NCBI RefSeq assembly: GCF_044647545.1
Contig: NZ_CP172818.1
DNA: 64,000 nucleotides
DNA from: Escherichia coli
Lineage (GTDB): Bacteria; Pseudomonadota; Gammaproteobacteria; Enterobacterales; Enterobacteriaceae
Strand: one strand, 5' to 3'
Numbering within the stretch: the stretch's first letter is position 1; the number at the start of each line of letters is the position of its first letter. Shown here piece after piece: positions 3,767 through 64,000 of this stretch. A program made the position numbers and the translations under genes. The notes under the pieces were generated by a model that was not told the origin of the DNA, searched no databases, and saw only the letters and a list, made by a program, of their open reading frames with translations.

Positions 3767-3990
3767 AAAACGTAGTTAAACGATTGCGTTCAAATATTTA
3801 ACCCCTCCTGTACTCTTTATCATAATGATAAGGAATCACTGATTTTGAGAAAAGAGAAAAAGTGATAAATGGGCTGGCAATAATAATTTTCAGGAGTGAT
3901 TTTAATTCTCATTTGGCACCTGTGAGTTCATTCACAAAAAGCCATTAAGTTTCGAGCCGCCTCACATTTTTTTATATTTCCCGCCAAACC

Positions 3991-4006
3991 TGGCAAGAGT
4001 GGTGCG
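3991..4006 (+). promoter_or_regulatory. candidate sigma-54 (-24/-12) promoter element upstream of ygfK
   Basis: TGGCA at 3991-3995 with TGC at 4003-4005, giving GG and GC at consensus spacing; about 80 bp upstream of the ygfK start; -12 region is imperfect. Confidence 0.25.
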
Positions 4007-4087
4007 ATTGTTGCTCTATCCCCCTAAACCACCGGATTTCTCAACACCGGTCACTCAATGATATCTGTATAAGCTAAGGAGAGGGTT

Positions 4088-44084: not shown

Positions 44085-45317
44085 TTAGTACAGCAGACGG
44101 GCGCGAATGGTACCCGGAATAGCTTTCATTGCCTGCAGCGCTTTTTCGGCAACGTCTTCGTCGGCTTCAATATCAATAACTACATAACCCATCTGGGCGG
44201 AAGTTTGTAGATATTGCGCGGCGATGTTGACGCCCTGCTCGGCAAAAATTTTGTTGAGCGCAGTTAGCACGCCCGGACGGTTTTCGTGGATGTGCATCAG
44301 ACGACGCCCACCGTGCAGTGGCAGCGAGACTTCCGGGAAGTTCACCGCAGAGAGCGTTGAGCCATTGTCAGAATACTTGATCAATTTACCCGCAACTTCC
44401 AGGCCGATATTCTCCTGCGCTTCCTGAGTCGAACCGCCAATGTGTGGCGTCAGAAGGACGTTGTCGAATTCACACAGCGGAGAGGTAAATGGATCGCTAT
44501 TGGTTGCCGGTTCCGTCGGGAATACGTCGATTGCCGCCCCCGCCAGATGTTTGCTCGCCAGCGCGTCACACAGCGCCGGAATATCCACCACAGTACCGCG
44601 CGAAGCATTAATCAGCAGCGAGCCGGGCTTCATTAGTGAAATCTCTTTCGCACTCATCATATTTTTGGTGGACGGATTCTCTGGTACATGCAGACTCACC
44701 ACATCGCTCATATTCAGCAGGTCAGAAAGATGCTGTACCTGAGTGGCGTTGCCCAGCGGCAGTTTGTTTTCAATATCATAAAAGTAAACATACATTCCCA
44801 GCGATTCAGCCAGAATGCCCAATTGAGTACCAATATGACCATAGCCGATGATACCCAGCTTTTTGCCGCGCGCTTCAAAAGAACCCGCCGCCAGTTTGTT
44901 CCACACGCCACGGTGCGCTTTAGCATTGGCTTCCGGCACGCCGCGCAATAGCAGCAGCAGTTCGCCAATCACCAGCTCCGCAACAGAGCGCGTATTTGAG
45001 AACGGTGCGTTAAATACCGGGATACCGCGTTTTGCCGCCGCATCCAGATCAACCTGGTTTGTTCCGATACAGAAACAGCCAATAGCGACCAGTTTTTCTG
45101 CGGCGTTGATCACGTCTTCAGTCAGATGGGTACGGGATCGCAGGCCGATGAAGTGGGCATCGCGGATGGATTCTTTTAATTGTTCATCATCCAGCGCGCC
45201 TTTGTGAAATTCGATGTTGGTGTAACCCGCTGCACGAAGGCTTTCAAGCGCCTTTTGGTGCACGCCTTCTACCAGCAGAAACTTAATCTTGTCTTTCTCC
45301 AGCGATACCTTTGCCAT
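44085..45317 (-). CDS. serA: D-3-phosphoglycerate dehydrogenase
   Basis: 410-aa ORF with NAD-binding GxGxxG and C-terminal ACT domain. Confidence 0.95.
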   Translation of the reverse strand: MAKVSLEKDKIKFLLVEGVHQKALESLRAAGYTNIEFHKGALDDEQLKESIRDAHFIGLRSRTHLTEDVINAAEKLVAIGCFCIGTNQVDLDAAAKRGIPVFNAPFSNTRSVAELVIGELLLLLRGVPEANAKAHRGVWNKLAAGSFEARGKKLGIIGYGHIGTQLGILAESLGMYVYFYDIENKLPLGNATQVQHLSDLLNMSDVVSLHVPENPSTKNMMSAKEISLMKPGSLLINASRGTVVDIPALCDALASKHLAGAAIDVFPTEPATNSDPFTSPLCEFDNVLLTPHIGGSTQEAQENIGLEVAGKLIKYSDNGSTLSAVNFPEVSLPLHGGRRLMHIHENRPGVLTALNKIFAEQGVNIAAQYLQTSAQMGYVVIDIEADEDVAEKALQAMKAIPGTIRARLLY

Positions 45318-45572
45318 TTACCCAATCCTGTCTTTTGAAATGTTGTGTGCGGATTTGCATCCGCCTTTCAACATATCAAAAAATAATATTGCGGCAATAT
45401 GAACGTTTGCGTCGCGATGTTGAGGAAATATCACGCAAAGGTATTTCTTGGATGAATATGCTGGTTTAGAGGATTTATTTAGAGCAATCGACAATAGCCA
45501 GGTAAAAACGTGACACATGTCACCAAATTTAATGAAGAGAATTTTTTTAACGGGGGAGGTTCCCCCGTCAGA

Positions 45573-46232
45573 TCATTTCACAATGGTTTTGACACCGTCA
45601 GGTGTGCCAATCAGCGCAACGTCCGCGCCACGGTTAGCAAACAAGCCAACAGTCACCACGCCAGGAATCGCATTTATGGCGTTTTCCATCGCTATCGGGT
45701 CAAGGATTTCCATGCCGTGGACGTCGAGGATCACGTTGCCGTTATCGGTCACCACGCCCTGACGGTATTCCGGACGACCGCCCAGTTTCACCAGCTGGCG
45801 CGCCACTGCACTACGTGCCATCGGGATAACTTCTACTGGCAGCGGGAATTTGCCCAGAATATCAACCTGCTTGGAGGCGTCGGCAATACAGATAAATTTT
45901 TCCGCAACCGAAGCAATGATTTTTTCACGGGTCAGCGCCGCGCCGCCGCCTTTGATCATTTGCATGTGGCCGTTGATTTCATCTGCGCCATCAACGTAGA
46001 TGCCAAGGCTGTCGACTTCGTTGAGATCAAAAACGTGAATGCCGAGGCTTTTCAGTTTTTCAGTGGAAGCATCTGAACTGGAAACGGCCCCTTCAATCTG
46101 GCCTTTCATTGTACCGAGCGCGTCAATAAAGTGTGCGGCGGTGGAACCTGTACCTACACCAACAATGGTGCCGGGCTGAACATACTGAAGTGCCGCCCAT
46201 CCTACTGCTTTTTTCAATTCATCCTGGGTCAT
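45573..46232 (-). CDS. rpiA: ribose-5-phosphate isomerase A
   Basis: 219-aa product from the [10 protein letters not shown] start. Confidence 0.95.
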
Positions 46233-46287
46233 GATCGTTTCGCCTGTGGTATGAAATTTCACACGCATTATATACAAAAAAAGCGAT

Positions 46288-46518
46288 TCAGACCCCGTTG
46301 GCAAGCCGCGTGGTTAACTCATCCATAAAATATCGCGCAATGGCGGGCATCCCCTTTCGCCCGGCAAATAAAGCATACAACGGTCTGGGTATGCCGCTCC
46401 ACGGTGCAAACAGGCGCACCAGTTCACCGTTCGCAAGCCCCTGTTTACAGGCAAATTGAGGCAATAACGCCACGCCATTCAACCCAACCGGGACGCGAAC
46501 TCGCCGAGCAAAATGCAT
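46288..46518 (-). pseudogene. yqfE: LysR-family regulator remnant (C-terminal fragment only)
   Basis: 76-codon frame resembling the C-terminal co-inducer domain of a LysR regulator; no N-terminal HTH region upstream. Confidence 0.6.
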
Positions 46519-46584
46519 TAGCGCAAATCCCTGATCTTATTACACAAGTATTTAATCATTATCTTTAATATAAAAGGAGTTATT

Positions 46585-46845
46585 ATGTCTATTAAGCAAA
46601 ATTTATTTGCCGCATTATTTCTTTGCACTCTCACAGGACACGCATTTGCCGCAACCGAGATACACAAACCGGACAATAATCTTGAACAGTTATCAAAAGT
46701 GAGCATGTCCACACACAATAGCAATCCAGCGGGCGTTGAAAGCCAAATCAAAAGAGAAAGCGGAAGAGTTACAAGCCAGCAATTACTACATCAGTTCTTT
46801 CTCCGTAAAAATTATATCCACGCCACTGTAATTTTCTATAAATAG
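46585..46845 (+). CDS. hypothetical small secreted protein (86 aa, predicted signal peptide)
   Basis: ATG preceded by strong RBS AAAAGGAG; N-terminal hydrophobic stretch ending in AFA; AT-rich; no recognised homolog. Confidence 0.4.
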   Translation: MSIKQNLFAALFLCTLTGHAFAATEIHKPDNNLEQLSKVSMSTHNSNPAGVESQIKRESGRVTSQQLLHQFFLRKNYIHATVIFYK

Positions 46846-47528
46846 CCCCTCTGTTTAACGGAAGCATGGAATTATTCCATGCTCCTCTGCCAAAATGAAA
46901 TAAAAAATGAAAAAAGCTAATCTTACAGGTACGTTGGTTTGCTTTGTCGCATGCCTTATTTTTTTGTCGTCCGGTGATATTTTTCGTGAAAAGCCAATCG
47001 CTCTAATATGGTTCCTTCGACAAAACATACTCTTTTTTACGGGAACTCTTGCGTGGTGTCTGATGACGCTGACGATGTGTTTATCGTTGCGTTCATCATG
47101 GCTTAACAAAGTGCTGGGCGGTCTGGATAAAGTATGGCGAATCACATAAGTGGGCAGGAATATGCGCCATAGCGTTTGCTTTCGCCCACTGGCTGGATGA
47201 AAAATTACCCCAGTTATTCGTCGCCTTTGGCTGGCTTACTCACCCTGGTAAAATCGTTGATATTAACCTGACGCCAGTACAAGAAAATTGGCTTCATGCG
47301 GGACTGTTAGCGGGTGAATGCGCAATGTTTATTATTATAGCGATGGTTTGCGTATCTCTTAGCAAAAGAGTTCCCTATCATTTATTTCATCTTGTTCACC
47401 GTTTGTTCCCCGTCTTTTATCTGGCAATTGCCTTTCATGTGTTTACTGCTTTGTTTAAATCATACTGGTGGAACTCCTGCTGCGTATTTATTAATTTTAA
47501 TTACTATTCCGGGCGTCTTTGCGGCTTT

Positions 47529-47537
47529 CATTTCGCT
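47529..47537. repeat. IS1 target-site duplication, left copy (CATTTCGCT)
   Basis: Identical 9-mer directly flanks both IS1 ends. Confidence 0.8.
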
Positions 47538-47552
47538 GGTAATGACTCCAAC

Positions 47553-47942
47553 TTACTGATAGTGTTTTATGTTCAGATAATGCCCGATGACTTTGTCATG
47601 CAGCTCCACCGATTTTGAGAACGACAGTGACTTCCGTCCCAGCCTTGCCAGATGTTGTCTCAGATTCAGGTTATGTCGCTCAATGCGCTGAGTGTAACGC
47701 TTGCTGATTACGTGCAGCTTTCCCTTCAGGCGGGATTCATACAGCGGCCAGCCATCCGTCATCCATACCACGACCTCAAAGGCCGACAGCAGGCTCAGAA
47801 GACGCTCCAGTGTGGCCAGAGTGCGTTCACCGAAGACGTGCCACAACCGTCCTCCGTATCCTGTCATACGCGTAAAACAGCCAGCGCTGACGTGATTTAG
47901 CACCGACGTAGCCCCACTGTTCGTCCATTTCAGCGCAGACAA
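47553..47942 (-). CDS. insB: IS1 InsB-like transposase C-terminal ORF
   Basis: 129 aa ending ...[54 protein letters not shown]; overlaps the insA-like ORF in a different frame. Confidence 0.7.
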
Positions 47943-48252
47943 TCACATCACTGCCCGGCTGTATGCGCGAGGTTACCGACTGCGGCCTGAGTTTTTTAAT
48001 AAAGTGACGTAAAATCGTGTTGAGGCCAACGCCCATAATGCGGGCGGTCGCCCGGCATCCAACACCATTCATGGCCATATCAATGATTTTCTGGTGTGTA
48101 CCGGGTTGAGAAGCGGTGTAAGTGAACTGCAGTTGCCATGTTTTACGGCAGTGAGAGCAGAGATAGCGCTGATGTCCGGCAGTACTTTTACCGTTACGCA
48201 CCACGCCTTCAGTAGCTGAGCAGGAGGGACAACTGATGGAGATGGAAGCCAC
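47827..48252 (-). CDS. insA: IS1 InsA-like ORF, continuing in frame into the N-terminal part of InsB (141 aa)
   Basis: Starts [40 protein letters not shown] (InsA zinc-finger/HTH) and runs past the usual A6C slippery region. Confidence 0.7.
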
Positions 48253-48307
48253 GGGAGCACCTCAAAAACACCATCATACACTAAATCAGTAAGTTGGCAC
48301 CATTACC

Positions 48308-48316
48308 CATTTCGCT
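48308..48316. repeat. IS1 target-site duplication, right copy (CATTTCGCT)
   Basis: Identical 9-mer directly flanks both IS1 ends. Confidence 0.8.
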
Positions 48317-49082
48317 GCTGAAATTCAAACGGTAGTAAAAACAAGCATCAGGCTACCATTAAAAACATTGTTAACCATCCAGGACAAATTACCGAAGTCA
48401 CCCTGGAACTGGAACATGCCATCGACTATTCTCCGGGGCAGTTTGCATTCTTAACGTTCGCACACAGTAAAGAATCTCACCCTTTTACTATCGCTTCATA
48501 CACCAAAGAGAAGAACACGTTGCGCTTTGCCATCAAAAATTTAGGGGATTATACCTCTACCCTTGCATCCTCGATAAAAATCGGCCAGTCCGCCTTCGTT
48601 GAAGGGCCATGGGGAAAGTTTGATTTAGACTCTCCCTTGCTCCCACCAGGTCTGGATAGCAGGAGGCATCGGCATTACCCCCTTTATCGCCCAGCTTGAG
48701 TATCGTAAACATCATGGCGCGTCCTCTGTTCCTGTGGATCTCTGGTATTACGTCAGCCGAAGCGAGGATGCCTGGTATGTTGATAAACTGACCTCACTTT
48801 GTGCCCAGGCCAGGGTCACACTGCATCTGCTTGATGCGCATAAAGGTGAGCGCCTACAGGCGCACTATCTTACTGATAAAATAGCAAATAAAGGTGACAC
48901 CCATTTCTGGTTTTGCGGCCCACAGAGTTTTGCCAAAGCGCTCAGCAAAGGGTTATATGAAAATGGGATTGCCAGCCAAAACTTCCATTACGACCGTTTT
49001 TGTATGCGTTAAATGCTCTGTACCCAACGCAAAATTGTGTCATAGTGCAGGAAAAAGCATTTACCAGGAGCAGACAACAGCA

Positions 49083-49976
49083 ATGAAACGCCCGGACTAC
49101 AGAACATTACAGGCACTGGATGCGGTGATACGTGAACGAGGATTTGAACGCGCGGCACAAAAGCTGTGCATTACACAATCAGCCGTCTCACAGCGCATTA
49201 AGCAACTGGAAAATATGTTCGGGCAGCCGCTGTTGGTGCGTACCGTACCGCCGCGCCCGACAGAACAAGGGCAAAAACTGCTGGCACTGCTACGCCAGGT
49301 GGAGTTGCTGGAAGAAGAGTGGCTGGGCGATGAACAAACCGGTTCGACTCCGCTGCTGCTTTCACTGGCGGTCAACGCCGACAGTCTGGCGACGTGGTTG
49401 CTTCCGGCGCTGGCTCCTGTGTTGGCTGATTCGCCTATCCGCCTCAACTTGCAGGTAGAAGATGAAACCCGCACTCAGGAACGTCTGCGCCGCGGCGAAG
49501 TGGTCGGCGCGGTGAGTATTCAACATCAGGCGCTGCCGAGTTGCCTTGTCGATAAGCTCGGTGCGCTTGACTATCTGTTCGTCAGCTCAAAACCGTTTGC
49601 CGAAAAATATTTCCCTAACGGCGTAACGCGTTCGGCATTATTGAAAGCACCTGTGGTCGCCTTTGACCATCTTGACGATATGCACCAGGCCTTTTTGCAG
49701 CAAAACTTCGATCTGCCCCCAGGCAGCGTACCGTGCCATATCGTTAATTCTTCAGAAGCGTTCGTACAACTTGCTCGCCAGGGCACCACCTGCTGTATGA
49801 TCCCGCACCTGCAAATCGAGAAAGAACTGGCCAGCGGCGAACTGATTGACTTAACGCCGGGGCTATTTCAACGCCGGATGCTCTACTGGCACCGCTTTGC
49901 TCCTGAAAGCCGCATGATGCGTAAAGTCACTGATGCGTTGCTCGATTATGGTCACAAAGTCCTTCGTCAGGATTAA
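49083..49976 (+). CDS. argP: LysR-type transcriptional regulator ArgP (IciA)
   Basis: 297-aa product from the [15 protein letters not shown] start; the 360-aa track ORF is an upstream extension. Confidence 0.93.
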
Positions 49977-50179
49977 TCCATCAAATAATGCCTGATAGCA
50001 CATATCAGGCGTTATCCTCACTTCTTTTTGTATTCCTTGAATCACATCACAAAATAGACAAATCTCAGGCGGCAAAAAACGACGTCTGAATGCATTTTTT
50101 TTGCTGGCGACAAACCCACGTAAAAAGCTCACCGTAAGCGCAAATACCCTCATTTTGATTGCGTTTTACGGAGCAAATA

Positions 50180-52323
50180 ATGTCTAACGTGCAGGAGTGG
50201 CAACAGCTTGCCAACAAGGAATTGAGCCGTCGGGAGAAAACTGTCGACTCGCTGGTTCAGCAAACCGCGGAAGGGATCGCCATCAAGCCGCTGTATACCG
50301 AAGCCGATCTCGATAATCTGGAGGTGACAGGTACCCTTCCTGGTTTGCCCCCTACGTTCGTGGCCCGCGTGCCACTATGTATACCGCCCAACCGTGGACC
50401 ATCCGTCAGTATGCTGGTTTTTCAACAGCAAAAGAGTCCAACGCTTTTTATCGCCGTAACCTGGCCGCCGGGCAAAAAGGTCTTTCCGTTGCGTTTGACC
50501 TTGCCACCCACCGAGGCTACGACTCCGATAACCCGCGCGTGGCGGGCGACGTCGGCAAAGCGGGCGTTGCTATCGACACCGTGGAAGATATGAAAGTCCT
50601 GTTCGACCAGATCCCGCTGGATAAAATGTCGGTTTCGATGACCATGAATGGCGCAGTACTACCAGTACTGGCGTTTTATATTGTCGCCGCAGAAGAGCAA
50701 GGTGTTACACCCGATAAACTGACCGGCACCATTCAAAACGATATCCTCAAAGAGTATCTTTGCCGCAACACCTATATTTACCCGCCAAAACCGTCAATGC
50801 GTATTATCGCAGACATCATCGCCTGGTGTTCCGGCAACATGCCGCGATTTAATACCATCAGTATCAGCGGTTACCATATGGGTGAAGCGGGTGCCAACTG
50901 CGTGCAGCAGGTAGCATTTACGCTCGCTGATGGGATTGAGTACATCAAAGCAGCAATCTCCGCCGGGCTGAAAATTGATGACTTCGCTCCTCGCCTGTCG
51001 TTCTTCTTCGGCATTGGCATGGATCTGTTTATGAACGTCGCCATGTTGCGTGCGGCACGTTATTTATGGAGCGAAGCGGTCAGTGGATTTGGCGCACAGG
51101 ATCCGAAATCACTGGCGCTGCGTACCCACTGCCAGACCTCAGGCTGGAGCCTGACTGAACAGGATCCGTATAACAACGTTATACGCACCACCATTGAAGC
51201 ACTGGCTGCAACGCTGGGCGGTACTCAGTCACTGCATACCAACGCCTTTGATGAAGCGCTTGGTTTGCCTACCGATTTCTCAGCACGCATTGCCCGCAAT
51301 ACCCAGATCATCATTCAGGAAGAATCAGAACTCTGCCGCACCGTCGATCCACTGGCCGGATCCTATTACGTTGAATCGCTGACCGATCAAATCGTCAAAC
51401 AAGCCAGAGCCATTATCCAACAGATCGACGAAGCCGGTGGCATGGCGAAAGCGATCGAAGCAGGTCTGCCAAAACGAATGATCGAAGAGGCCTCAGCGCG
51501 CGAACAGTCGTTGATCGACCAGGGCAAGCGTGTCATCGTTGGTGTCAACAAGTACAAACTGGATCACGAAGACGAAACCGATGTACTTGAGATCGACAAC
51601 GTGATGGTGCGTAACGAGCAAATTGCTTCGCTGGAACGCATTCGCGCCACCCGTGATGATGCCGCCGTAACCGCCGCGTTGAACGCCCTGACTCACGCCG
51701 CACAGCATAACGAAAACCTGCTGGCTGCCGCTGTTAATGCCGCTCGCGTTCGCGCAACGCTTGGTGAAATTTCCGATGCACTGGAAGCGGCATTTGACCG
51801 TTATCTGGTGCCAAGCCAGTGTGTTACCGGCGTGATTGCGCAAAGCTATCATCAGTCTGAGAAATCGGCCACCGAGTTCGATGCCATTGTTGCGCAAACG
51901 GAGCAGTTCCTTGCCGACAATGGTCGTCGCCCGCGCATTCTGATCGCCAAAATGGGCCAGGATGGGCACGATCGCGGCGCGAAAGTGATCGCCAGCGCCT
52001 ATTCCGATCTCGGTTTCGACGTAGATTTAAGCCCGATGTTCTCTACACCTGAAGAGATCGCCCGCCTGGCAGTAGAAAACGACGTTCACGTAGTGGGCGC
52101 ATCTTCACTGGCTGCCGGTCATAAAACGCTGATCCCGGAACTGGTCGAAGCGCTGAAAAAATGGGGACGCGAAGATATCTGCGTGGTCGCGGGTGGCGTC
52201 ATTCCGCCGCAGGATTACGCCTTCCTGCAGGAGCGCGGCGTGGCGGCGATTTATGGTCCAGGTACGCCTATGCTCGACAGCGTGCGCGACGTACTGAATC
52301 TGATAAGCCAGCATCATGATTAA
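50180..52323 (+). pseudogene. scpA: methylmalonyl-CoA mutase ScpA (Sbm) with a 1-nt frameshift near 50348-50352
   Basis: First 57 codons in one frame (ORF 50159-50593), the rest including the conserved [22 protein letters not shown] in the -1 frame (ORF 50377-52323); span is 1 nt short of a 714-aa ORF; C-terminal B12-binding region present. Confidence 0.75.
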
Positions 52324-53311
52324 TGAAGCCACGCTGGCAGAAAGTATTCGCCGCTTACGTCAGGGTGAGCGTGCCACGCTCGCCCAGGCCATGACGCTGG
52401 TGGAAAGCCGTCACCCGCGTCATCAGGCGCTAAGTACGCAACTGCTTGATGCCATTATGCCGTTCTGTGGTAACGCCCTGCGACTGGGTGTTACCGGCAC
52501 ACCCGGCGCGGGGAAAAGTACCTTTCTTGAAGCCTTTGGCATGTTGTTGATTCGTGAGGGACTAAAGGTTGCGGTTATTGCGGTCGATCCCAGCAGCCCG
52601 GTCACTGGCGGTAGCATTCTCGGAGATAAAACCCGCATGAATGATCTGGCGCGTGCCGAGGCGGCGTTTATTCGCCCGGTACCCTCCTCCGGTCATCTGG
52701 GCGGTGCCAGTCAGCGAGCGCGGGAATTAATGCTGTTATGCGAAGCGGCGGGTTATGACGTAGTGATTGTCGAAACGGTTGGCGTCGGACAGTCGGAAAC
52801 GGAAGTCGCCCGCATGGTGGACTGTTTTATCTCGTTGCAAATTGCCGGTGGCGGCGATGATCTGCAGGGCATTAAAAAGGGGCTGATGGAAGTGGCAGAT
52901 CTGATCGTTATCAACAAAGACGATGGCGATAACCATACCAATGTCGCCATTGCCCAGCATATGTACGAGAGTGCCCTGCATATTCTGCGACACAAATACG
53001 ACGAATGGCAGCCACGGGTTCTGACTTGTAGCGCACTGGAAAAACGTGGAATCAATGAGATCTGGCACGCCATCATCGACTTCAAAACCGCGCTAACTGC
53101 CAGTGGTCGTTTGCAACAAGTACGGCAACAACAATCAGTGGAATGGCTGCGTAAACAAACCGAAGAAGAAGTACTGAATCACCTGTTCGCGAATGAAGAT
53201 TTCGATCGCTATTACCGCCAGACGCTTTTAGCGGTCAAAAACAATACGCTCTCACCGCGCACCGGCCTGCGACAGCTCAGTGAATTTATCCAGACGCAAT
53301 ATTTTGATTAA
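52316..53311 (+). CDS. argK: methylmalonyl-CoA mutase-associated G-protein (MeaB-like GTPase)
   Basis: 331-aa ORF with P-loop GTPGAGKST; overlaps scpA stop by 8 bp. Confidence 0.92.
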
Positions 53312-53321
53312 AGGAATTTTT

Positions 53322-54107
53322 ATGTCTTATCAGTATGTGAACGTTGTCACTATCAACAAAGTGGCGGTCATTGAGTTTAACTATGGCCGAAAACTTAATG
53401 CCTTAAGTAAAGTCTTTATTGATGATCTTATGCAGGCATTAAGCGATCTCAACCGGCCGGAAATTCGCTGTATCATTTTGCGCGCGCCGAGTGGATCCAA
53501 AGTCTTCTCCGCAGGTCACGATATTCACGAACTGCCGTCTGGCGGTCGCGATCCGCTCTCCTATGATGATCCGTTGCGTCAAATCACCCGCATGATCCAA
53601 AAATTCCCGAAACCGATCATTTCGATGGTGGAAGGTAGTGTTTGGGGTGGCGCATTTGAAATGATCATGAGTTCCGATCTGATTATCGCCGCCAGTACCT
53701 CAACCTTCTCAATGACACCTGTAAACCTCGGTGTCCCGTATAACCTGGTCGGCATTCACAATCTGACCCGCGACGCGGGCTTCCACATTGTCAAAGAGCT
53801 GATTTTTACCGCTTCGCCAATCACCGCCCAGCGCGCGCTGGCTGTCGGCATCCTCAACCATGTTGTGGAAGTGGAAGAACTGGAAGATTTCACCTTACAA
53901 ATGGCGCACCACATCTCTGAGAAAGCGCCGTTAGCCATTGCCGTTATCAAAGAAGAGCTGCGTGTACTGGGCGAAGCGCACACCATGAACTCCGATGAAT
54001 TTGAACGTATTCAGGGGATGCGCCGCGCGGTTTATGACAGCGAAGACTACCAGGAAGGGATGAACGCTTTCCTCGAAAAACGTAAACCTAATTTCGTTGG
54101 TCATTAA
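53322..54107 (+). CDS. scpB: methylmalonyl-CoA decarboxylase (crotonase fold)
   Basis: 261-aa product from the MSYQYVNVVTINK start. Confidence 0.92.
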   Translation: MSYQYVNVVTINKVAVIEFNYGRKLNALSKVFIDDLMQALSDLNRPEIRCIILRAPSGSKVFSAGHDIHELPSGGRDPLSYDDPLRQITRMIQKFPKPIISMVEGSVWGGAFEMIMSSDLIIAASTSTFSMTPVNLGVPYNLVGIHNLTRDAGFHIVKELIFTASPITAQRALAVGILNHVVEVEELEDFTLQMAHHISEKAPLAIAVIKEELRVLGEAHTMNSDEFERIQGMRRAVYDSEDYQEGMNAFLEKRKPNFVGH

Positions 54108-54130
54108 TCCCTGCGAACGAAGGAGTTAAA

Positions 54131-55609
54131 ATGGAAACTCAGTGGACAAGGATGACCGCCGATGAAGCGGCAGAAATTATCCAGCATAACGACATGGTGG
54201 CATTTAGCGGCTTTACCCCAGCGGGTTCGCCGAAAGCCTTACCCACCGCGATTGCCCGCAGAGCTAACGAACAGCATGAGGCCAAAAAGCCGTATCAAAT
54301 TCGCCTGCTGACGGGGGCGTCAATCAGCGCCACCGCTGACGATGTACTTTCTGACGCCGATGCTGTTTCCTGGCGTGCGCCATATCAAACATCGTCCGGT
54401 TTACGTAAAAAGATCAATCAGGGCGCGGTGAGTTTCGTTGACCTGCATTTGAGCGAAGTGGCGCAAATGGTCAATTACGGTTTCTTCGGCGACATTGATG
54501 TTGCCGTCATCGAAGCATCGGCACTGGCACCGGATGGTCGAGTCTGGTTAACCAGCGGGATCGGTAATGCGCCGACCTGGCTGCTGCGAGCGAAGAAAGT
54601 GATCATTGAACTTAATCACTATCACGATCCGCGCGTTGCAGAACTGGCAGATATTGTGATTCCTGGCGCGCCACCGCGGCGCAATAGCGTGTCGATCTTC
54701 CATGCAATGGATCGCGTCGGTACCCGCTATGTGCAAATCGATCCGAAAAAGATTGTCGCCGTCGTGGAAACCAACTTGCCTGACGCCGGTAATATGCTGG
54801 ATAAGCAAAATCCCATGTGCCAGCAGATTGCCGATAACGTGGTCACGTTCTTGTTGCAGGAAATGGCGCATGGGCGTATTCCGCCGGAATTTCTGCCGCT
54901 GCAAAGTGGCGTGGGCAATATCAATAATGCGGTAATGGCGCGTCTGGGGGAAAACCCGGAAATTCCTCCGTTTATGATGTATTCGGAAGTGCTACAGGAA
55001 TCGGTGGTGCATTTACTGGAAACCGGCAAAATCAGCGGGGCCAGCGCCTCCAGCCTGACAATCTCGGCCGATTCCCTGCGCAAGATTTACGACAATATGG
55101 ATTACTTTGCCAGCCGCATTGTGTTGCGTCCGCAGGAGATTTCCAATAACCCGGAAATCATCCGTCGTCTGGGCGTCATCGCTCTGAACGTCGGCCTGGA
55201 GTTTGATATTTACGGGCATGCCAACTCAACGCACGTAGCCGGGGTCGATCTGATGAACGGCATCGGCGGCAGCGGTGATTTTGAACGCAACGCGTATCTG
55301 TCGATCTTTATGGCTCCGTCGATTGCTAAAGAAGGCAAGATCTCAACCGTCGTGCCAATGTGCAGCCATGTTGATCACAGCGAACACAGCGTCAAAGTGA
55401 TCATCACCGAACAAGGGATCGCCGATCTGCGCGGTCTTTCCCCGCTTCAACGCGCCCGCACTATCATTGATAATTGTGCACATCCTATGTATCGGGATTA
55501 TCTGCATCGTTATCTGGAAAATGCGCCCGGCGGACATATTCACCACGATCTTAGCCACGTCTTCGACTTACACCGTAATTTAATTGCAACCGGCTCGATG
55601 CTGGGTTAA
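54131..55609 (+). CDS. scpC: propionyl-CoA:succinate CoA-transferase
   Basis: 492-aa ORF matching ScpC (YgfH). Confidence 0.92.
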   Translation: METQWTRMTADEAAEIIQHNDMVAFSGFTPAGSPKALPTAIARRANEQHEAKKPYQIRLLTGASISATADDVLSDADAVSWRAPYQTSSGLRKKINQGAVSFVDLHLSEVAQMVNYGFFGDIDVAVIEASALAPDGRVWLTSGIGNAPTWLLRAKKVIIELNHYHDPRVAELADIVIPGAPPRRNSVSIFHAMDRVGTRYVQIDPKKIVAVVETNLPDAGNMLDKQNPMCQQIADNVVTFLLQEMAHGRIPPEFLPLQSGVGNINNAVMARLGENPEIPPFMMYSEVLQESVVHLLETGKISGASASSLTISADSLRKIYDNMDYFASRIVLRPQEISNNPEIIRRLGVIALNVGLEFDIYGHANSTHVAGVDLMNGIGGSGDFERNAYLSIFMAPSIAKEGKISTVVPMCSHVDHSEHSVKVIITEQGIADLRGLSPLQRARTIIDNCAHPMYRDYLHRYLENAPGGHIHHDLSHVFDLHRNLIATGSMLG

Positions 55610-56502
55610 TGGTTTGTCCCGTCACGATCTTCAGCAATATGCTGAAGCATCGTGGCGGTATAACGATGATTTCTGATTGAATAAAGATATTCCTGCATAT
55701 ACATCGGCCTGTGCGGCGCATCAAAATATTTCAGCGTTGCCGGATTCACCAGTCGCCAGGCAAAATGCGGGATCACCGTCAGAAAATGTCCGCGCTCCAC
55801 GGCGCTGATTTTGGCCATAAAACTGTAGGGACGATAAATAATGGTGGGATTGATCCCACAAGGTCGCATATTCGCATCAATCATTGCTTCGAAGTTAGCC
55901 CGGTTCTGAAAGCGCATTTGCAGCCAGGGTAGCTCCTGAAGCAGCTCTTGCTCTTGTCGCTCTTCATAACGGCGAGAAACGAGAAAGCCCAATCGCAGCG
56001 GTGGTAGTTCACTGATAGTCAGGTTTTCCAGTTCCTGAACTCGTGCAGATACATGCTGTGGGGAGATAATAAAATCTAACTGACGGTCAAAAAGATTATC
56101 GATAACGCCGTTTTCGCTGAACTCAACTGGCTGGGCGGTCACGCCTTCATACTTATCTCCGAGACTAATCAACTGATCGAAAATAATTGTCGGATAAGTA
56201 TTATCTATGCCAATCACAATTTCTCGTGAACGACGCCCTGAGTTATGGATTTCATTATCAATCGCAGAAAGTCGTTGATAAACCGGGAACAGTTTTTGAT
56301 ACAGTTCCTGTCCGGCTTTATTGAGGCTGATATTATTATCTTTGCGGGTAAATAGCGTATAGCCAATTTGTTCTTCCAGCGCGGCAATGCTTTTACCAAA
56401 TGGCGAAGCCGTCATATGGATTTTTTCTGCCGCCCGGGCAATATTATTGGTTTGCGCTAATAAAATGAAATTGCGCATCTTTTTCGAAATAAAAATGTCC
56501 AT
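55606..56502 (-). CDS. ygfI: LysR-family transcriptional regulator
   Basis: 298-aa ORF with N-terminal HTH; convergent with scpC, 4-bp overlap. Confidence 0.88.
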   Translation of the reverse strand: MDIFISKKMRNFILLAQTNNIARAAEKIHMTASPFGKSIAALEEQIGYTLFTRKDNNISLNKAGQELYQKLFPVYQRLSAIDNEIHNSGRRSREIVIGIDNTYPTIIFDQLISLGDKYEGVTAQPVEFSENGVIDNLFDRQLDFIISPQHVSARVQELENLTISELPPLRLGFLVSRRYEERQEQELLQELPWLQMRFQNRANFEAMIDANMRPCGINPTIIYRPYSFMAKISAVERGHFLTVIPHFAWRLVNPATLKYFDAPHRPMYMQEYLYSIRNHRYTATMLQHIAEDRDGTNH

Positions 56503-56669
56503 ACCCCCTCCCCCGCATCCTTGTCCGCTTAACCGTTTCAGTCAGCCTATCCTTGATGAAACCGCGAGCAAAGATAGGTGATTACGTCATGGTTTTACAG
56601 AAAATTACAGAAAAAGGAGGCAATATCGGGTAAAGGCATTAGCCCGACGAATACGTCGGGCTACAAATA

Positions 56670-57410
56670 TTATTGTGCTGCAGGTGTTTTAGCGGGTTGT
56701 TGATCCACAGGTTCTAACTGGAAGACCACATCGACCTGATCATCAAACTGAATAGCGGCCTGCTCGTAAGTTTCCTGGGCGGACACCGGCGCGGCATCGG
56801 CTTTCATCATCCGCACCATTGGGCTGGGCTGATAGTTGGAAACATGGTAGCGCACGCTATATACCGGCCCCAGTTTACGATGAAAGCCGTTCGCCAGTTC
56901 CTGCGCCTGATGAATCGCGTTATCAATCGCTGCCTTACGCGCTTTGTCTTTATAGGCATCCGGCTGCGCCACGCCCAGCGACACAGAACGAATTTCGTTA
57001 AGACCCGCCTTCAGCGCGCCATCCAGCAAGGAATTCAGTTTGTCTAACTGACGGAGCGTGACTTCCACCGTTCTCACAGCACGGTAGCCTTTCAGGATAC
57101 TTTTACCATCCTGATAATCATAATCTGGCTGGGTGCGTAAGTTCGCTGAGCTGATATCTTTTTTCGCGATCTGATTGAGTTCAAGGAAGGAAATGTATTG
57201 TGCGACGCGCTCATCCGCCTGTTTCTTGGCAGTAGCGGCATCCTTCGCGGCCACGTTGACTTCAATCGCAAGAGTGGCAATGTCTGGCACCGCATCCACG
57301 CTTGCCGTACCGGAGGTGACAATATGCGGTCCATCCGGCAATTCGTTAGCCTGCGCTGCCATCCCGCTAATACCCATTAATGCCGCCAGGGCGATAACTT
57401 TGAACTTCAC
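56670..57410 (-). CDS. yggE: periplasmic SIMPL/DUF541-family protein YggE
   Basis: 246-aa ORF with signal peptide. Confidence 0.88.
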   Translation of the reverse strand: MKFKVIALAALMGISGMAAQANELPDGPHIVTSGTASVDAVPDIATLAIEVNVAAKDAATAKKQADERVAQYISFLELNQIAKKDISSANLRTQPDYDYQDGKSILKGYRAVRTVEVTLRQLDKLNSLLDGALKAGLNEIRSVSLGVAQPDAYKDKARKAAIDNAIHQAQELANGFHRKLGPVYSVRYHVSNYQPSPMVRMMKADAAPVSAQETYEQAAIQFDDQVDVVFQLEPVDQQPAKTPAAQ

Positions 57411-57502
57411 GTTAGTCTCTCCGTGTTAATTGACTTGCCCAAAATTCAGGACCTCTGGAGGCAAGCTTAGCGCCTCTGTTTTATTTTTCCATCAGATAGC
57501 GC

Positions 57503-58138
57503 CTAACTGAACAAGGCTTGTGCATGAGCAATACCGTCTCTCGCCAGCTGCAAGGCAATAAACCACATAACACATCCCACTACCAGATTGATAATGCGTT
57601 GTGATTTTGCCGTGCGCAGGCGCGGTGCCAGCCAGGCTGCGAGAATAGCCAGACCAAAGAACCACAGGAAAGAGGCGCTAATTGTCCCGAGCGCAAACCA
57701 ACGTTTTGGTTCGACGTCAAGCTGCCCACCAAGGCTGCCCAGTACAACAAAAGTATCCAGGTAAACATGCGGATTCAGCCAGGTCACTGCCAACATGGTG
57801 GCGATAATTTTCCATCTGCCTTGCTTCAGGACTTCGGCACTGGCTAACTCAATATTACTGCTCATTGCTGTTTTAAAAGCGCCAAAACCATACCACAGCA
57901 AGAAGGCTACGCCGCCCCAGGTGACCAGCGCCAGCAACCACGGCGACTGCATCAATAACGCACTGCCACCAAAAATCCCGGCGCAAATCAGGACCAAATC
58001 GCTGATAGCGCAAAGTAAGGCAATCATAATGTGGTACTGACGACGAATGCCCTGATTCATCACAAAAGCATTTTGTGGACCGAGCGGTAGGATCATAGCC
58101 GCCCCAAGCGCAAGACCTTGAAAGTAATAAGAAAACAC
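57503..58138 (-). CDS. argO: arginine exporter (LysE family)
   Basis: 211-aa membrane protein matching ArgO. Confidence 0.9.
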
Positions 58139-58276
58139 GTTGGATATTCCGAATTAAGTATCTGATGCAGAGACTATATCGCGGGATTGTTATTAGCGGA
58201 AATTGATAATATTAATTGGCAATCAGAAAAACTAATAAGAGAGAGGCCAGAGAGTATTATCTGGCCTCAGCGTTGA

Positions 58277-59137
<861 letters not shown>

Positions 59138-59271
59138 TCAATATTCCTTTTCAACTGACTCAAAATGGAGAAATACACTCCGCCGCCTTATGACGGGCAG
59201 TCTGACAAGGGTAAACAATAAAGCATAATTTTGCCAAATAGATCACAGATTTCTCATCTGTATCCTCTGGC

Positions 59272-59296
59272 GAAAAAAAGACCCGCAGAGCGGGCC
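59272..59296 (-). terminator. Rho-independent terminator downstream of fbaA
   Basis: Minus-strand GGCCCGC-TCT-GCGGGTC hairpin followed by TTTTTTT. Confidence 0.7.
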
Positions 59297-59320
59297 TTGA
59301 GATAAGCAGAAAGGAATGAC

Positions 59321-60400
59321 TTACAGAACGTCGATCGCGTTCAGTTCCTGGAATGCTTTTTCCAGACGAGCGATCATCGAAGTCTGACCGGCACGCAGCC
59401 ATACGCGCGGATCGTAGTATTTCTTGTTCGGCTGATCTTCGCCTTTCGGGTTACCCAGCTGACCCTGCAGGTAAGCTTCGTTCGCTTTGTAGTAGTTCAG
59501 AACGCCTTCCCAGGTTGCCCATTGGGTATCGGTATCGATGTTCATTTTCACTACGCCGTAGCTTACGGAGTCTTTGATTTCCTGAGCAGTAGAACCGGAA
59601 CCACCGTGGAATACGAAGTTCAGGCTGTTGTGCGGCAGGTTGTGTTTCTTAGAAACATATTCCTGAGAATCACGCAGGATGGTCGGAGTCAGAACCACGT
59701 TACCCGGCTTGTAAACACCGTGTACGTTACCGAAGGACGCTGCGATGGTGAAACGCGGGCTGATTTTGCTCAGCTCGGTATACGCATAATCAACGTCTTC
59801 CGGCTGGGTGTACAGTGCAGAAGCGTCCATGTGGCTGTTGTCCACGCCGTCTTCTTCACCACCGGTGCAACCCAGTTCGATTTCCAGAGTCATGCCGATT
59901 TTGGACATGCGCTCCAGGTATTTAGAGCAGATTTCGATGTTCTCTTGCAGAGATTCTTCAGACAGGTCGATCATGTGAGAAGAGAACAGCGGCTTGCCGG
60001 TAGCTGCGAAGTGTTTTTCACCAGCGTCCAGCAGACCGTCGATCCACGGCAGCAGTTTCTTCGCGCAGTGGTCGGTGTGCAGGATAACCGGAACACCATA
60101 ATGTTCAGCCATCTGGTGAACGTGATGCGCACCAGAGATCGCGCCCAGGATAGCAGCACCCTGCGGAACGTCAGATTTCACGCCTTTACCAGCGATAAAG
60201 GAAGCACCACCGTTGGAGAACTGAACGATAACCGGCGCTTTAACTTTAGCAGCGGTTTCCAGCACGGCGTTGATGGAGTCAGTACCGACGCAGTTTACTG
60301 CTGGCAGTGCGAAGTTGTTTTCTTTTGCTACCTGGAAAACTTTCTGTACGTCATCACCAGTGATTACGCCAGGTTTTACGAAATCAAAAATCTTAGACAT
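59321..60400 (-). CDS. fbaA: fructose-bisphosphate aldolase class II
   Basis: 359-aa product from the MSKIFDFVKPGV start. Confidence 0.95.
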   Translation of the reverse strand: MSKIFDFVKPGVITGDDVQKVFQVAKENNFALPAVNCVGTDSINAVLETAAKVKAPVIVQFSNGGASFIAGKGVKSDVPQGAAILGAISGAHHVHQMAEHYGVPVILHTDHCAKKLLPWIDGLLDAGEKHFAATGKPLFSSHMIDLSEESLQENIEICSKYLERMSKIGMTLEIELGCTGGEEDGVDNSHMDASALYTQPEDVDYAYTELSKISPRFTIAASFGNVHGVYKPGNVVLTPTILRDSQEYVSKKHNLPHNSLNFVFHGGSGSTAQEIKDSVSYGVVKMNIDTDTQWATWEGVLNYYKANEAYLQGQLGNPKGEDQPNKKYYDPRVWLRAGQTSMIARLEKAFQELNAIDVL

Positions 60401-60613
60401 GTCTCTTGTCCTGTATCGTCGGGCCTTATACTCGTCATACTTCAAGTTGCATGTGCTGCGTCTGCGTTCGCTCACCCCAGTCACTTACTTATGTAAGCTC
60501 ATGGGATTCACTCTCTTGTCGCCTTCCTGCAACTCGAATTATTTAGAGTATGAAAAAGTGCGTGCTTTAAAAGCGCGCTGCAACAAGGGCAGGTTTCCCT
60601 GCCCTGTGATTTT

Positions 60614-61777
60614 TTACTTCTTAGCGCGCTCTTCGAGCATCGCTACTGCAGGCAGTACTTTACCTTCCACGAATTCGAGGAATGCGCCGCCGCCAGTGGA
60701 GATGTAGGAGATTTTGTCAGCAATGCCGAACAGGTCGATTGCTGCCAGAGTGTCGCCGCCGCCAGCGATGGAGAACGCTTCGCTGTCTGCGATAGCGTTA
60801 GCCACGATTTCAGTACCTTTGCGGAAGTTCGGGAATTCGAACACGCCAACCGGACCGTTCCACAGAATGGTTTTCGCATTCTTCAGGATTTCAGCCAGTT
60901 CCTGAGCGGAAGCATCACCGATATCCAGGATCTGCTCGTCAGCTTTCACATCGTTAACAGATTTCAGGGTAGCCGGTGCAGTTTCAGAGAACTCAGTTGC
61001 TACACGAACATCAGACGGAACCGGGATGTTGCAGGTGGTCAGCAGACGTTTTGCTTCGTCAACCAGATCAGCTTCGTACAGGGATTTACCCACATCGTGG
61101 CCTTGTGCCGCGATAAAGGTGTTAGCGATACCACCACCAACAATCAGCTGGTCAGCGATTTTAGACAGGGAGTCCAGAACGGTCAGTTTGGTAGATACTT
61201 TAGAACCACCAACGATAGCCACCATCGGGCGAGCAGGTTCTTTCAGTGCTTTACCCAGCGCGTCCAGTTCAGCTGCCAGCAGCGGGCCTGCGCACGCAAC
61301 GTCAGCGAATTTACCGATACCGTGAGTAGAAGCCTGCGCGCGGTGAGCAGTACCGAATGCGTCCATTACGAACACGTCACACAGTGCAGCGTATTTTTTG
61401 GACAGGGTTTCGTCGTCTTTCTTCTCGCCTTTGTTGAAGCGAACGTTTTCCAGAACAACCAGTTCACCTTCAGCAACGTCAACGCCGTCGAGGTAATCTT
61501 TAACCAGACGAACCGGGTTAGACAGTTTGTCTTTCAGGTAGTTAACAACCGGCAGCAGAGAGAATTCTTCGTTGTACTCGCCTTCGGTAGGACGACCCAG
61601 GTGGGAAGTTACCATCACTTTTGCGCCTTGTTTCAGGGCCAGTTCGATGGTCGGCAGAGAAGCACGGATACGCGCGTCGCTGGTTACTTTCCCGTCTTTT
61701 ACTGGTACGTTCAGATCCGCACGGATAAATACACGTTTCCCAGCAAGATCCAGATCGGTCATCTTAATTACAGACAT
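60614..61777 (-). CDS. pgk: phosphoglycerate kinase
   Basis: 387-aa product from the [25 protein letters not shown] start. Confidence 0.95.
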
Positions 61778-61826
61778 GGTGAATCCTCTCGTTGATTCTA
61801 AAAGTTTTGCAGACGCTGCTTGCGTC

Positions 61827-62846
61827 TTACCTGAAAGCAACAGTAGCCATAGCTAACGTCGTGTCGAGCATTCGGTTAGCAAAGCCCCATTCGTTATCGC
61901 ACCAGACCAACGTTTTGATCAGGTGTGCGCCACTGACCCGGGTTTGAGTGCCATCGACAATGGCACTGTGCGGATCGTGGTTAAAATCTACAGAGACCAA
62001 CGGCAATTCCGTATAGTCAACTATACCATGAAATGCACCTTGTGCTGCTTTTTGCAGCAACAGGTTGACTTCATTGGCTTTTACAGGTTTCTTCACCGTC
62101 ACGCTTAAATCGATTGCCGTCACATTTATGGTTGGCACACGTACCGCAATCGCTTCAAAGCGATCGTTAAATTGCGGAAAAAATCGTGTGATACCGGCGG
62201 CCAGTTTAGTATCGACCGGAATGATCGACTGGCTGGCTGCCCGGGTGCGACGCAGGTCAGGATGGTATGCATCAATAACCTGTTGATCGTGCATGGCGGA
62301 GTGAATTGTGGTCACAGTGCCGGACTCAATACCGTACGCATCATCTAACAATTTGATGACGGGAATTATGCAATTCGTGGTACAGGAAGCGTTAGAAACG
62401 ATGCGGTGTTCCGCACGAAGTTGATCCTGATTGACGCCGTAAACAACGGTCGCGTCGAGATCGTTACTGCCAGGATGTGAAAAGAGCACTTTTTTAGCCC
62501 CGGCGGCAATGTGTGCTTCACCATGCTCGCGGGAGCCATATACGCCGGTGCAGTCGAGGACTACATCAACGCCAAGTTCACGCCAGGGGAGCGATTGCAG
62601 TGAACGTTCATGCAATACACGGATGGCGTCATCACCAACAAAAAGTTGATTGCGTTCCTGTCGTACTTCCCATGCAAAACGGCCATGGCTGGTGTCATAT
62701 TTCAACAAATGCGCCATGCCCGCAGCATCCGCCAGTTCGTTGATTGCCACCACGGTAATTTCCGCCCGGCGTCCGGATTCATACAAAGCACGAACCACAT
62801 TACGCCCGATGCGACCGAAGCCATTTATCGCTACGCGTACGGTCAT
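61827..62846 (-). CDS. epd: D-erythrose-4-phosphate dehydrogenase
   Basis: 339-aa product from the [15 protein letters not shown] start; GAPDH family. Confidence 0.93.
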
Positions 62847-63130
62847 AGATCTCCTGCAAGGTTTTCCCTGAGCAAATTTGCCAGACAGAGTAATCCAGCA
62901 AATCGTCCGGGGAAACCTTACCTGTCGCAAACTGCGACTGATTGGTTAATTGTCGAACATTTAATCGACTGAAACGCTTCAGCTAGGATAAGCGAAACGT
63001 GGAATAAAAGGAATGTTTGTCCAGCCGAAGAAGACATTTATCTGACTCACATCACACTTTTATCCCCTTTTGTGGGAAGCTTTATTCCAGGCTGGCGTAA
63101 TAATAACCCTGCAATAACTGGAATAAATTG

Positions 63131-63844
63131 TCAGCTTGTGAAGTAATACCGGCCTTCTTCAGTCATCTCTACTATCAGATTGGCCTGACGACTATTCATC
63201 AGCACACGCTCGACATTGGGGCCATCGGTTCGGGCATAAAATGCTTCGGCTTCTTGCCGCGATAATCCTCCCGCAATTTTACGACTAATCAAGCGCTCCC
63301 GCAGAATTTGAGCAGGTGCATGAATAAAAATAGAAAAATCGCAGAAAGATGCCAATTCCTGCCACTTTTCATCATCCAGTAATAGCCAGTTTCCTTCGAC
63401 GATGACGAGTGGTGCGGTAACGTGCAACGCATCTTCAACAGGATCATGCTTTTGTCGATCGTACTGCGGCCACGTACAATCCCCTTCCACGACCTGGCGC
63501 AGATTTTCCGCCAGTTTCGCAACGTCAAATGTCTCTGGTGCGCCTTTGAAGGGGCGCAATTGATGCGCATCCAGCCAGCTATTGTAATGGTGAAAACCAT
63601 CCATCGGTAGCGTCTGAATAGCGGGCAGTTCCGGGTCTTGTTGCGCGATATATTCCCAGAAGGTGGTTAGGGTAGATTTACCCGTCCCCGGCGGAGCGCA
63701 AAGAAAAACCACCGTACGCCGCTGCGGATTTACCGTCTGTAAGGCCGCCAACATGTGCAGCAACGGTTTATGTACATTTTCAATCTCTTCGTTCTGGTAC
63801 TGTGCCTGTATCTTCAGCCCATTCACCGTTAATTCAATTTTCAC
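63131..63844 (-). CDS. yggC: P-loop nucleoside/pantothenate-kinase-like protein YggC
   Basis: 237-aa ORF with Walker A GTGKST; apparently a non-ATG (GTG) start. Confidence 0.85.
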   Translation of the reverse strand: MKIELTVNGLKIQAQYQNEEIENVHKPLLHMLAALQTVNPQRRTVVFLCAPPGTGKSTLTTFWEYIAQQDPELPAIQTLPMDGFHHYNSWLDAHQLRPFKGAPETFDVAKLAENLRQVVEGDCTWPQYDRQKHDPVEDALHVTAPLVIVEGNWLLLDDEKWQELASFCDFSIFIHAPAQILRERLISRKIAGGLSRQEAEAFYARTDGPNVERVLMNSRQANLIVEMTEEGRYYFTS

Positions 63845-64000
63845 GGCGTTAATTCCTTTAAGGTGGTCGTTACTGCCAGCGTCAGCGCCGTTTTGACCAT
63901 CCCGCTAAAACGCGCCTCTGACCAGACGGCGAAATCGGCGAACTTCATCGCTTTCAATGCGTCATAGAGCGTCGCATTGCGGGTTATGCTATTGACGTTG

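Follow-up and report, generated by a model that had tools for sequence, protein, structure and literature searches.

The structural framework for the DUF1471 family comes from the solved structures of SrfN, YahO and YdgH, which share a mixed α+β fold (β1, a short helix, β2, a long helix, β3 and β4), together with the description of a structural relationship between DUF1471 and RcsF (Eletsky et al., PMC4092069). Two members of the family, BhsA (YcfR) and YhcN, are products of monocistronic stress genes. In Escherichia coli K-12, a third member, RclB, is encoded between the genes for a cytoplasmic flavoprotein reductase and an inner-membrane protein, next to a divergent activator gene (rclR, facing rclABC). 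The rclABC genes provide defence against reactive chlorine and hypothiocyanite, and rclB and rclC mutants behave alike, suggesting that their products act jointly (PMC12096828). A further point of reference is the class of bacterial NOX-like proteins (PMC5676040), to which the flavocytochrome discussed below is assigned. No paper linking DUF1471 to a ferric-reductase-domain protein was found in the literature searched.

The sequence considered here – a 64,000-nucleotide stretch, referred to as the window – shows the E. coli chromosomal gene order serA, rpiA, an accessory segment, argP and scpA. The accessory segment contains an 86-codon ORF at 46585-46845 that belongs to a known family already annotated in RefSeq: judged by its sequence, it is not an orphan but this strain's copy of a small periplasmic DUF1471 (YdgH/BhsA/McbA, 'YhcN') gene. 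As written in the record, that copy is scrambled, and its lesions are probably artefacts, introduced by an assembly that was guided by a reference or had its gaps poorly filled. The features of the locus are as follows.

46288-46518, minus strand: remnant of a LysR-family regulator gene, C-terminal 76 codons, equivalent to the K-12 pseudogene yqfE (Pfam LysR_substrate, 29.3 bits)
46480-46481, no strand: blunt junction left by a deletion of 1,346 bp that clade-mates do not have, at a position identical to the K-12-type yqfE junction
46481-46568, plus strand: last 88 nt, including the TAA, of an FMN-dependent NADH-azoreductase-like gene (aligned to 5001-5088 of locus L001)
46574-46579, plus strand: Shine–Dalgarno sequence AAGGAG, ending 5 nt before the ATG of the DUF1471 ORF
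46585-46845, plus strand: DUF1471-family ORF, ATG start, 86 codons plus TAG; a frame-scrambled copy of WP_000023744.1
46585-46650, plus strand: signal peptide, residues 1-22, with cleavage predicted between AFA and AT (inspection and hydropathy); kept in orthologs
46750-46753, plus strand: A-run lengthened by one base, from AAA to AAAA, which shifts the frame by +1 after codon 56
46753-46806, plus strand: out-of-frame codons 57-74, EKAEELQASNYYISSFSG becoming RESGRVTSQQLLHQFFLR; the stretch comprises the whole of β3 and the C-terminal portion of the long helix
46805-46805, plus strand: missing G (GG to G), a -1 change that restores the frame for the last 12 codons
46859-46886, plus strand: stable hairpin in the intercistronic space that separates the DUF1471 stop from the start of the flavocytochrome gene (-15.8 kcal/mol, z -3.8); not followed by a U-tract
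46907-47537, plus strand: N-terminal (transmembrane) part of a NOX-like flavocytochrome gene; it has 2 substitutions and two private indels, a +1 at 47140 and a -2 at 47471
47538-48307, minus strand: IS1 insertion of 770 nt with target duplication CATTTCGCTG; this copy carries one substitution and two private indels, a -2 and a +4, the latter at the A6C frameshift site
48308-49012, plus strand: remainder of the flavocytochrome gene, for the C-terminal, FAD/NAD-binding part; it has substitutions and private +1 indels at 48326 and 48627

Much of what the earlier note had read from this ORF holds. The 86-codon frame and its canonical AAGGAG ribosome-binding site are present as described, and the N-terminus that it had likened to a signal peptide displays, on inspection and by hydropathy, a basic n-region (K4), a hydrophobic core (Kyte–Doolittle 11-residue mean up to 2.3) and an A-F-A/A site that agrees with the -3/-1 rule. 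The sequence runs MSIKQNLFAALFLCTLTGHAFA up to the predicted cleavage point and continues with AT; residues 7-22 are LFAALFLCTLTGHAFA. By the same two approaches, the product has the make-up of a small periplasmic protein, that is, a Sec signal peptide followed by about 60-70 mature residues. The window ORF lacks a lipobox – Leu precedes Cys14 – and has no other cysteines. Its position close upstream of a decayed ferric-reductase-like gene, within a wrecked accessory operon, is also as noted: the remnant of that gene starts at 46907, 61 nt 3' of the DUF1471 ORF.

As for identity, a homology and HMM search, proposed as a check on the ORF, gave a clear answer. Across its full length, the window ORF shares 80% identity with WP_000023744.1, an 86-residue protein annotated in E. 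coli as 'DUF1471 domain-containing protein' or 'YdgH/BhsA/McbA family protein' and carried by strains including IMT16316, Ecol_881 and CB6837, and the underlying DNA is the same apart from two 1-nt indels. The two share locus, length, ribosome-binding site, signal peptide, and the first 56 and last 12 residues; they differ in that window residues 57-74 are out of frame and that the window has lost the upstream regulator and promoter, along with most of the azoreductase gene. The intact allele matches Pfam PF07338 with 37.9 bits over residues 34-86, against a gathering score of 27 bits, whereas the window ORF yields no PF07338 match at E<=1, and the BhsA profile score falls from 53 bits for the intact allele to 21.8 bits for the window copy. 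The gene lineage belongs to PF07338; the product encoded in this record no longer scores as a member.

Within the family, the intact allele stays under every NCBIfam equivalog cut-off – BhsA (53.1 bits against 90), YhcN (38.6 against 125), RclB (27.7 against 100), McbA (27.8 against 110) and YbiJ (30 against 110) – and it is therefore a distinct paralog. BhsA and YhcN supply the best of these profiles over the full length, and they share its size, signal peptide and C-terminal motif; they are unlike it in genomic context, and the scores lie far under their respective cut-offs. An exhaustive phmmer search returned only 8 proteins at E<=0.001, which makes this paralog a narrow subfamily.

Structural comparison places the intact allele in the same fold. 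A single-sequence search of the PDB with the DUF1471 protein gave nothing significant. An AF2 model of the intact allele, with seven family sequences as input, shows a β/α/β/β core with a domain pLDDT of 80-92. Its top PDB matches in Foldseek are the DUF1471 structures 2m2j, 2jna, 2ma8 and 4evu, with the solved DUF1471 domains of YdgH and SrfN as the best neighbours and RcsF next, so that the model recovers the DUF1471–RcsF relationship described by Eletsky et al. (PMC4092069). Superposition on 2m2j, 4evu and 2ma8 gives target-normalised TM scores of 0.63-0.75 at an rmsd of about 2.4-2.5 Å. The resemblance to SrfN, YahO, YdgH/SssB and RcsF is thus one of fold, at a sequence identity of 17-20%. 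RcsF differs further in its characteristic cysteines and lipobox, absent from the DUF1471 protein here; the possibility that the window ORF encodes an RcsF-like outer-membrane lipoprotein was considered and excluded, given that it has neither a lipobox nor redox-active cysteines, and RcsF is a structural neighbour only.

Where it is kept, the DUF1471 gene is, by sequence comparison, a real gene under purifying selection. Between the intact gene and its ortholog in a species with 83.5% identity in core genes, pN/pS is 0.073, and a strain with 97% identity in the DNA of the locus encodes an unchanged protein. Short ORFs of such length are common in six-frame translations, and one could suppose that this is a chance ORF that was never a gene here; near-identity to a conserved, annotated gene under purifying selection, in conserved synteny, refutes that supposition and leaves it with next to no probability.

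The earlier note had also taken the gene to be possibly intact, and this does not apply to the copy as written: no ortholog reads codons 57-74 in the frame used here, Pfam no longer gives a match, and the gene has lost its native promoter and regulator to a deletion. Relative to four other alleles, the frame is broken by the +1 at 46750-46753 and mended by the -1 at 46805, and the family sequence KAEELQASNYYISSFS can still be read in the +1 frame of the window. The ORF remains open because the two indels compensate; about 42% of random 18-codon out-of-frame stretches contain no stop, so the open frame is unremarkable. Likewise, the C-terminal strand motif A-T-x-x-x-Y-K is kept (as HATVIFYK) because the -1 indel restores the frame.

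The replaced segment is central to the fold. In the model of the intact allele, the long helix spans residues 48-62 and the central strand β3 residues 66-73, and in the window copy residues 57-62 and the whole of β3 are replaced. With half of the long helix and the central β-strand destroyed, the scrambled product would be non-functional. One might instead suppose that some new promoter drives the ORF and that its product works as a secreted protein whose middle segment is novel, given that the ORF is open and retains a strong ribosome-binding site, the signal peptide, and the first 56 and last 12 residues with ATxxxYK. We consider this very improbable: the segment lost is conserved in the Salmonella ortholog, in all other orthologs and even in RclB, the family HMM match is lost, the upstream plus strand shows no promoter-like site, and the allele occurs in a single record.

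No promoter-like or terminator-like sites were found on the plus strand near the ORF, and no Rfam family reaches threshold in 45000-49500. The hairpin at 46859-46886 is present in all alleles, the CB6837 allele being changed at 46862 and 46886, and could be an intercistronic mRNA element.

Downstream, the intact flavocytochrome is a protein of 441 aa annotated as 'ferredoxin reductase family', with Ferric_reduct, FAD and NAD domains, and its best solved relatives are the NADPH oxidase NOX of Streptococcus pneumoniae and NOX5. In the window, its gene is split by IS1 at an insertion site common to the clade-mates (the nearest relatives) and carries four private indels besides. The IS1 copy has peculiarities of its own, both private to the record: a 4-nt insertion at the A6C programmed-frameshift site (47998-48001) fuses insA in frame to insB', and a 2-nt deletion further on (47839) truncates that fusion.

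Upstream, the 1,346-bp deletion has removed residues 1-222 of the LysR protein and codons 1-180 of the azoreductase gene, together with the divergent promoter region, leaving the junction CCATTC followed by AACCCAACC (CCATTC, then AACCC). The LysR remnant aligns with the 3' end of the 298-aa LysR gene of IMT16316, its first codons coming from the tail of the azoreductase gene, whose intact product matches Pfam Flavodoxin_2 with 139 bits. In K-12, where yqfE is annotated as a pseudogene, the rpiA-argP spacer has the same LysR remnant and the same deletion junction as the window; K-12-type genomes differ in that the DUF1471 and flavocytochrome genes are missing as well. The K-12-type yqfE is present in most E. 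coli. A recurrent deletion mediated by repeats or microhomology was rejected, as no direct or inverted repeat of >=7 nt was found at the ends of the 1,346-bp deletion.

The lesions of the ORF are part of a wider set of changes private to this record. The exact scrambled protein, WP_400164852.1, occurs in one public record only, that of a 4,499,902-bp sequence, whereas the relatives have 5.1-5.3 Mb and the intact protein is found on at least 1,000 contigs. Against Ecol_881, the nearest complete genome, the window shows 0 substitutions in 1-46480 and 48751-64000 (about 59 kb). Besides the 1,346-bp deletion, the record has 12 small private events between 46750 and 48750, comprising 8 indels (1-4 nt each) and 5 substitutions, of which one abuts an indel; they make up a private patch of about 0.5% divergence over 2.3 kb. 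All 12 fall within the segment missing from K-12-type genomes (46543 to about 49026), and none of the private small changes is shared by Ecol_881, IMT16316 or the divergent CB6837 allele.

The distribution of these changes follows the structure of another genome. Compared with K-12, Ecol_881 falls into six collinear blocks across the window, and their five boundaries coincide to the nucleotide with private events:

605: private -2
30358: private -1
33007-33011, bglA/gcvP spacer: private -101
46481-48750: the deletion and the noisy patch
59264: replacement of 10 nt by 3 nt

Only one private difference lies outside these five boundaries, in scpA, and there are no substitutions elsewhere in the 64 kb. 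That difference frameshifts scpA (methylmalonyl-CoA mutase; ORFs 50159-50593 and 50377-52323) at 50347, where one C is lost from a C6 run that in K-12 has a G inside it (CCGCCC). In the bglA/gcvP spacer, the relatives' 101-nt REP-containing spacer is absent and a few filler bases stand in its place; the bglA stop is changed from TAA to TAG at 33007-33011, so that a stop is preserved, and K-12 has the ygfF gene there. The 33007 junction in one piece is absent from every complete E. coli genome.

The coincidence of private events with all five structural boundaries means that the lesions are most likely assembly artefacts, a reading that we hold to be probable. In a consensus built on a K-12-like reference, a pure insertion would be missed, a replaced segment would be gap-filled from noisy data, and scars would remain where DNA present only in the reference had been cut out. 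The record's size, near that of K-12, fits such a consensus. So does the deletion junction itself, which is of K-12 type, yet has flanks that are 100% Ecol_881-type: the adjoining 61-nt azoreductase tail of K-12-type genomes carries five substitutions, none of which is present in the window. The natural small indels inside the collinear blocks were called correctly in the record, which fits a read-mapping, reference-guided consensus better; a homolog-majority indel polisher was rejected, since natural small indel differences between K-12 and Ecol_881 inside these blocks were not converted. Direct copying of the scars from K-12 sequence was likewise dismissed by comparison.

The alternative is genuine decay, in which a real 1,346-bp deletion silenced the remnant, which then gathered indels, leaving the ORF a true pseudogene that is open by chance. 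We regard this as possible but the less favoured account. It draws on the partner flavocytochrome gene being already dead through IS1 in the whole clade, on the loss of the locus from most E. coli – in K-12-type strains completely – and on the fact that all private changes except that in scpA fall in non-functional or non-coding DNA. Other E. coli assemblies, moreover, have independent lesions in the DUF1471 gene, including IS1 fusions after residues 29, 59 and 65, frameshifts and internal deletions. The rest of the window is essentially error-free in its coding sequence, contrary to what a generally poor assembly would give, and, outside the dead segment, REP elements or terminator hairpins lie next to four of the five private events. 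REP elements and hairpins are natural hotspots of variation.

Several observations are nevertheless hard to reconcile with decay. Relaxed selection is insufficient to explain 5 substitutions and 8 indels in 2.3 kb beside flanks of about 59 kb with 0 substitutions; the spectrum is dominated by indels, with random-base insertions that are unusual for natural mutation; and a blunt junction identical to the ancient K-12-type one would need to have arisen twice. The private events match all five K-12-versus-lineage boundaries. Neither the 5,426 complete genomes nor the protein collection holds a second example of the allele, and its junction is missing from the JGI metagenomes.

Other natural origins were tried and set aside. 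A search with the deletion-junction pattern gave 0 matches in the JGI metagenomes and 0 among the 5,426 complete E. coli genomes, and a natural 'intermediate allele' in circulation elsewhere was rejected accordingly. Recombination with a diverged allele that had already decayed was rejected because the window agrees with Ecol_881 and IMT16316 at every CB6837-variant site and all 13 changes are private. A templated origin of the clustered changes, from a quasi-palindrome or an ectopic donor, was rejected as well, with no donor k-mers within 400 nt.

In the other assemblies just mentioned (among them P0021, P0022 and P0027), the DUF1471 N-terminus, up to residue 65, 59 or 29, is joined to a read-through peptide from the IS1 end. 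Their sequences suggest that repeated IS1-adjacent deletions proceed leftwards from the IS1 in the flavocytochrome gene.

If the lesions in this record are indeed made by assembly, the intact allele, present in all clade-mates, is probably what the living strain has too. The earlier note's picture would then be nearly right for that strain, which probably resembles its clade-mates in having an intact DUF1471 gene beside an IS1-broken flavocytochrome gene.

What the intact locus looks like can be seen in the minority of genomes that retain it. The region rightwards from 46481 matches about 230 of the 5,426 complete E. coli genomes (about 4%), and the intact rpiA-argP cluster consists of a divergent LysR regulator gene followed by azoreductase-like, DUF1471 and NOX-like membrane flavocytochrome genes, with DUF1471 in the middle. 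A synteny check, suggested at the outset for intact ferric-reductase homologs, found DUF1471 adjoining the flavocytochrome gene in E. coli, in Salmonella and in two further enterobacterial arrangements. Salmonella enterica has LysR, flavodoxin-like, DUF1471 and flavocytochrome genes in this order at a different chromosomal site, with a flavocytochrome that is 52% identical; a more distant Escherichia-like genome (L011) has the same four-gene order at the rpiA-argP site; and L020/L021 have LysR, DUF1471 and flavocytochrome genes without a reductase gene. In an enterobacterium with core genes about 77% identical (L018/L019, 4001-5277), the rpiA-argP site holds LysR, DUF1471 and a truncated flavocytochrome gene.

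Two of these arrangements have features of their own. In L018/L019, the flavocytochrome is truncated N-terminally to its FAD/NAD part and there is no azoreductase gene; the DUF1471 gene is intact, and is found on 10 contigs. In L011, the DUF1471–flavocytochrome segment (3587-4645) is 90% identical to that of the window, compared with about 83.5% for the core genes serA, rpiA and argP (1-2240 and 4636-6513), so that the module may have been exchanged horizontally at the site between rpiA and argP.

The DUF1471 and flavocytochrome genes are thus adjacent across divergent genomes and at different chromosomal sites, as expected of operon partners. The pairing has a limit: flavocytochrome homologs with <=42% identity (in Pantoea, Trabulsiella, Enterobacter and others) have no DUF1471 neighbour. 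Its conservation within the sub-clade supports a functional link, with the DUF1471 protein as a putative periplasmic partner of the NOX-like flavocytochrome. The suggestion that the ORF encodes a periplasmic partner of a ferric reductase accordingly survives in part: conserved synteny speaks for the partnership, and it is the copy as written here that is not intact.

The nearest described parallel to such a partnership is RclB with RclC. The rcl locus resembles the cluster in that both place a DUF1471 gene between the genes of a reductase and a membrane protein, with a divergently encoded regulator. The components differ, however: the regulator is of AraC type in the rcl system and of LysR type here, the reductase is a pyridine-nucleotide-disulfide oxidoreductase rather than a flavodoxin-like protein, and the membrane partner is a DUF417 protein rather than a haem/FAD flavocytochrome. 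Between the DUF1471 proteins themselves, the similarity is at the profile level only (NF040474), and pairwise BLASTP of the DUF1471 protein against RclB gave no match.

On this analogy, we tentatively propose that the LysR/azoreductase-like/DUF1471/NOX-like set may constitute a hitherto undescribed module for envelope redox or oxidant defence, in which the DUF1471 protein could be a periplasmic partner or acceptor of transmembrane electrons. The LysR protein would turn on the azoreductase-like, DUF1471 and flavocytochrome genes; cleavage between AFA and AT would free a 64-residue mature DUF1471 domain into the periplasm; and there the mature protein, together with the six-helix NOX-like membrane flavocytochrome, would take part in an envelope response to redox or oxidant stress, much as RclB may do with RclC. 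The copy as written in the record could not act in this way, with residues 57-74 scrambled and the regulator and promoter deleted.

The locus carries a caution for the annotation of small genes: a full-length ORF may have both a perfect ribosome-binding site and a signal peptide and yet be scrambled, which only comparison with orthologs reveals. It also makes inferences on gene decay from this particular record unsafe, as its indels, missing segments and K-12-type junction look assembly-made. For the family itself, the conserved cluster offers a modest broader lead, in that it could supply a DUF1471 protein with a defined membrane partner.
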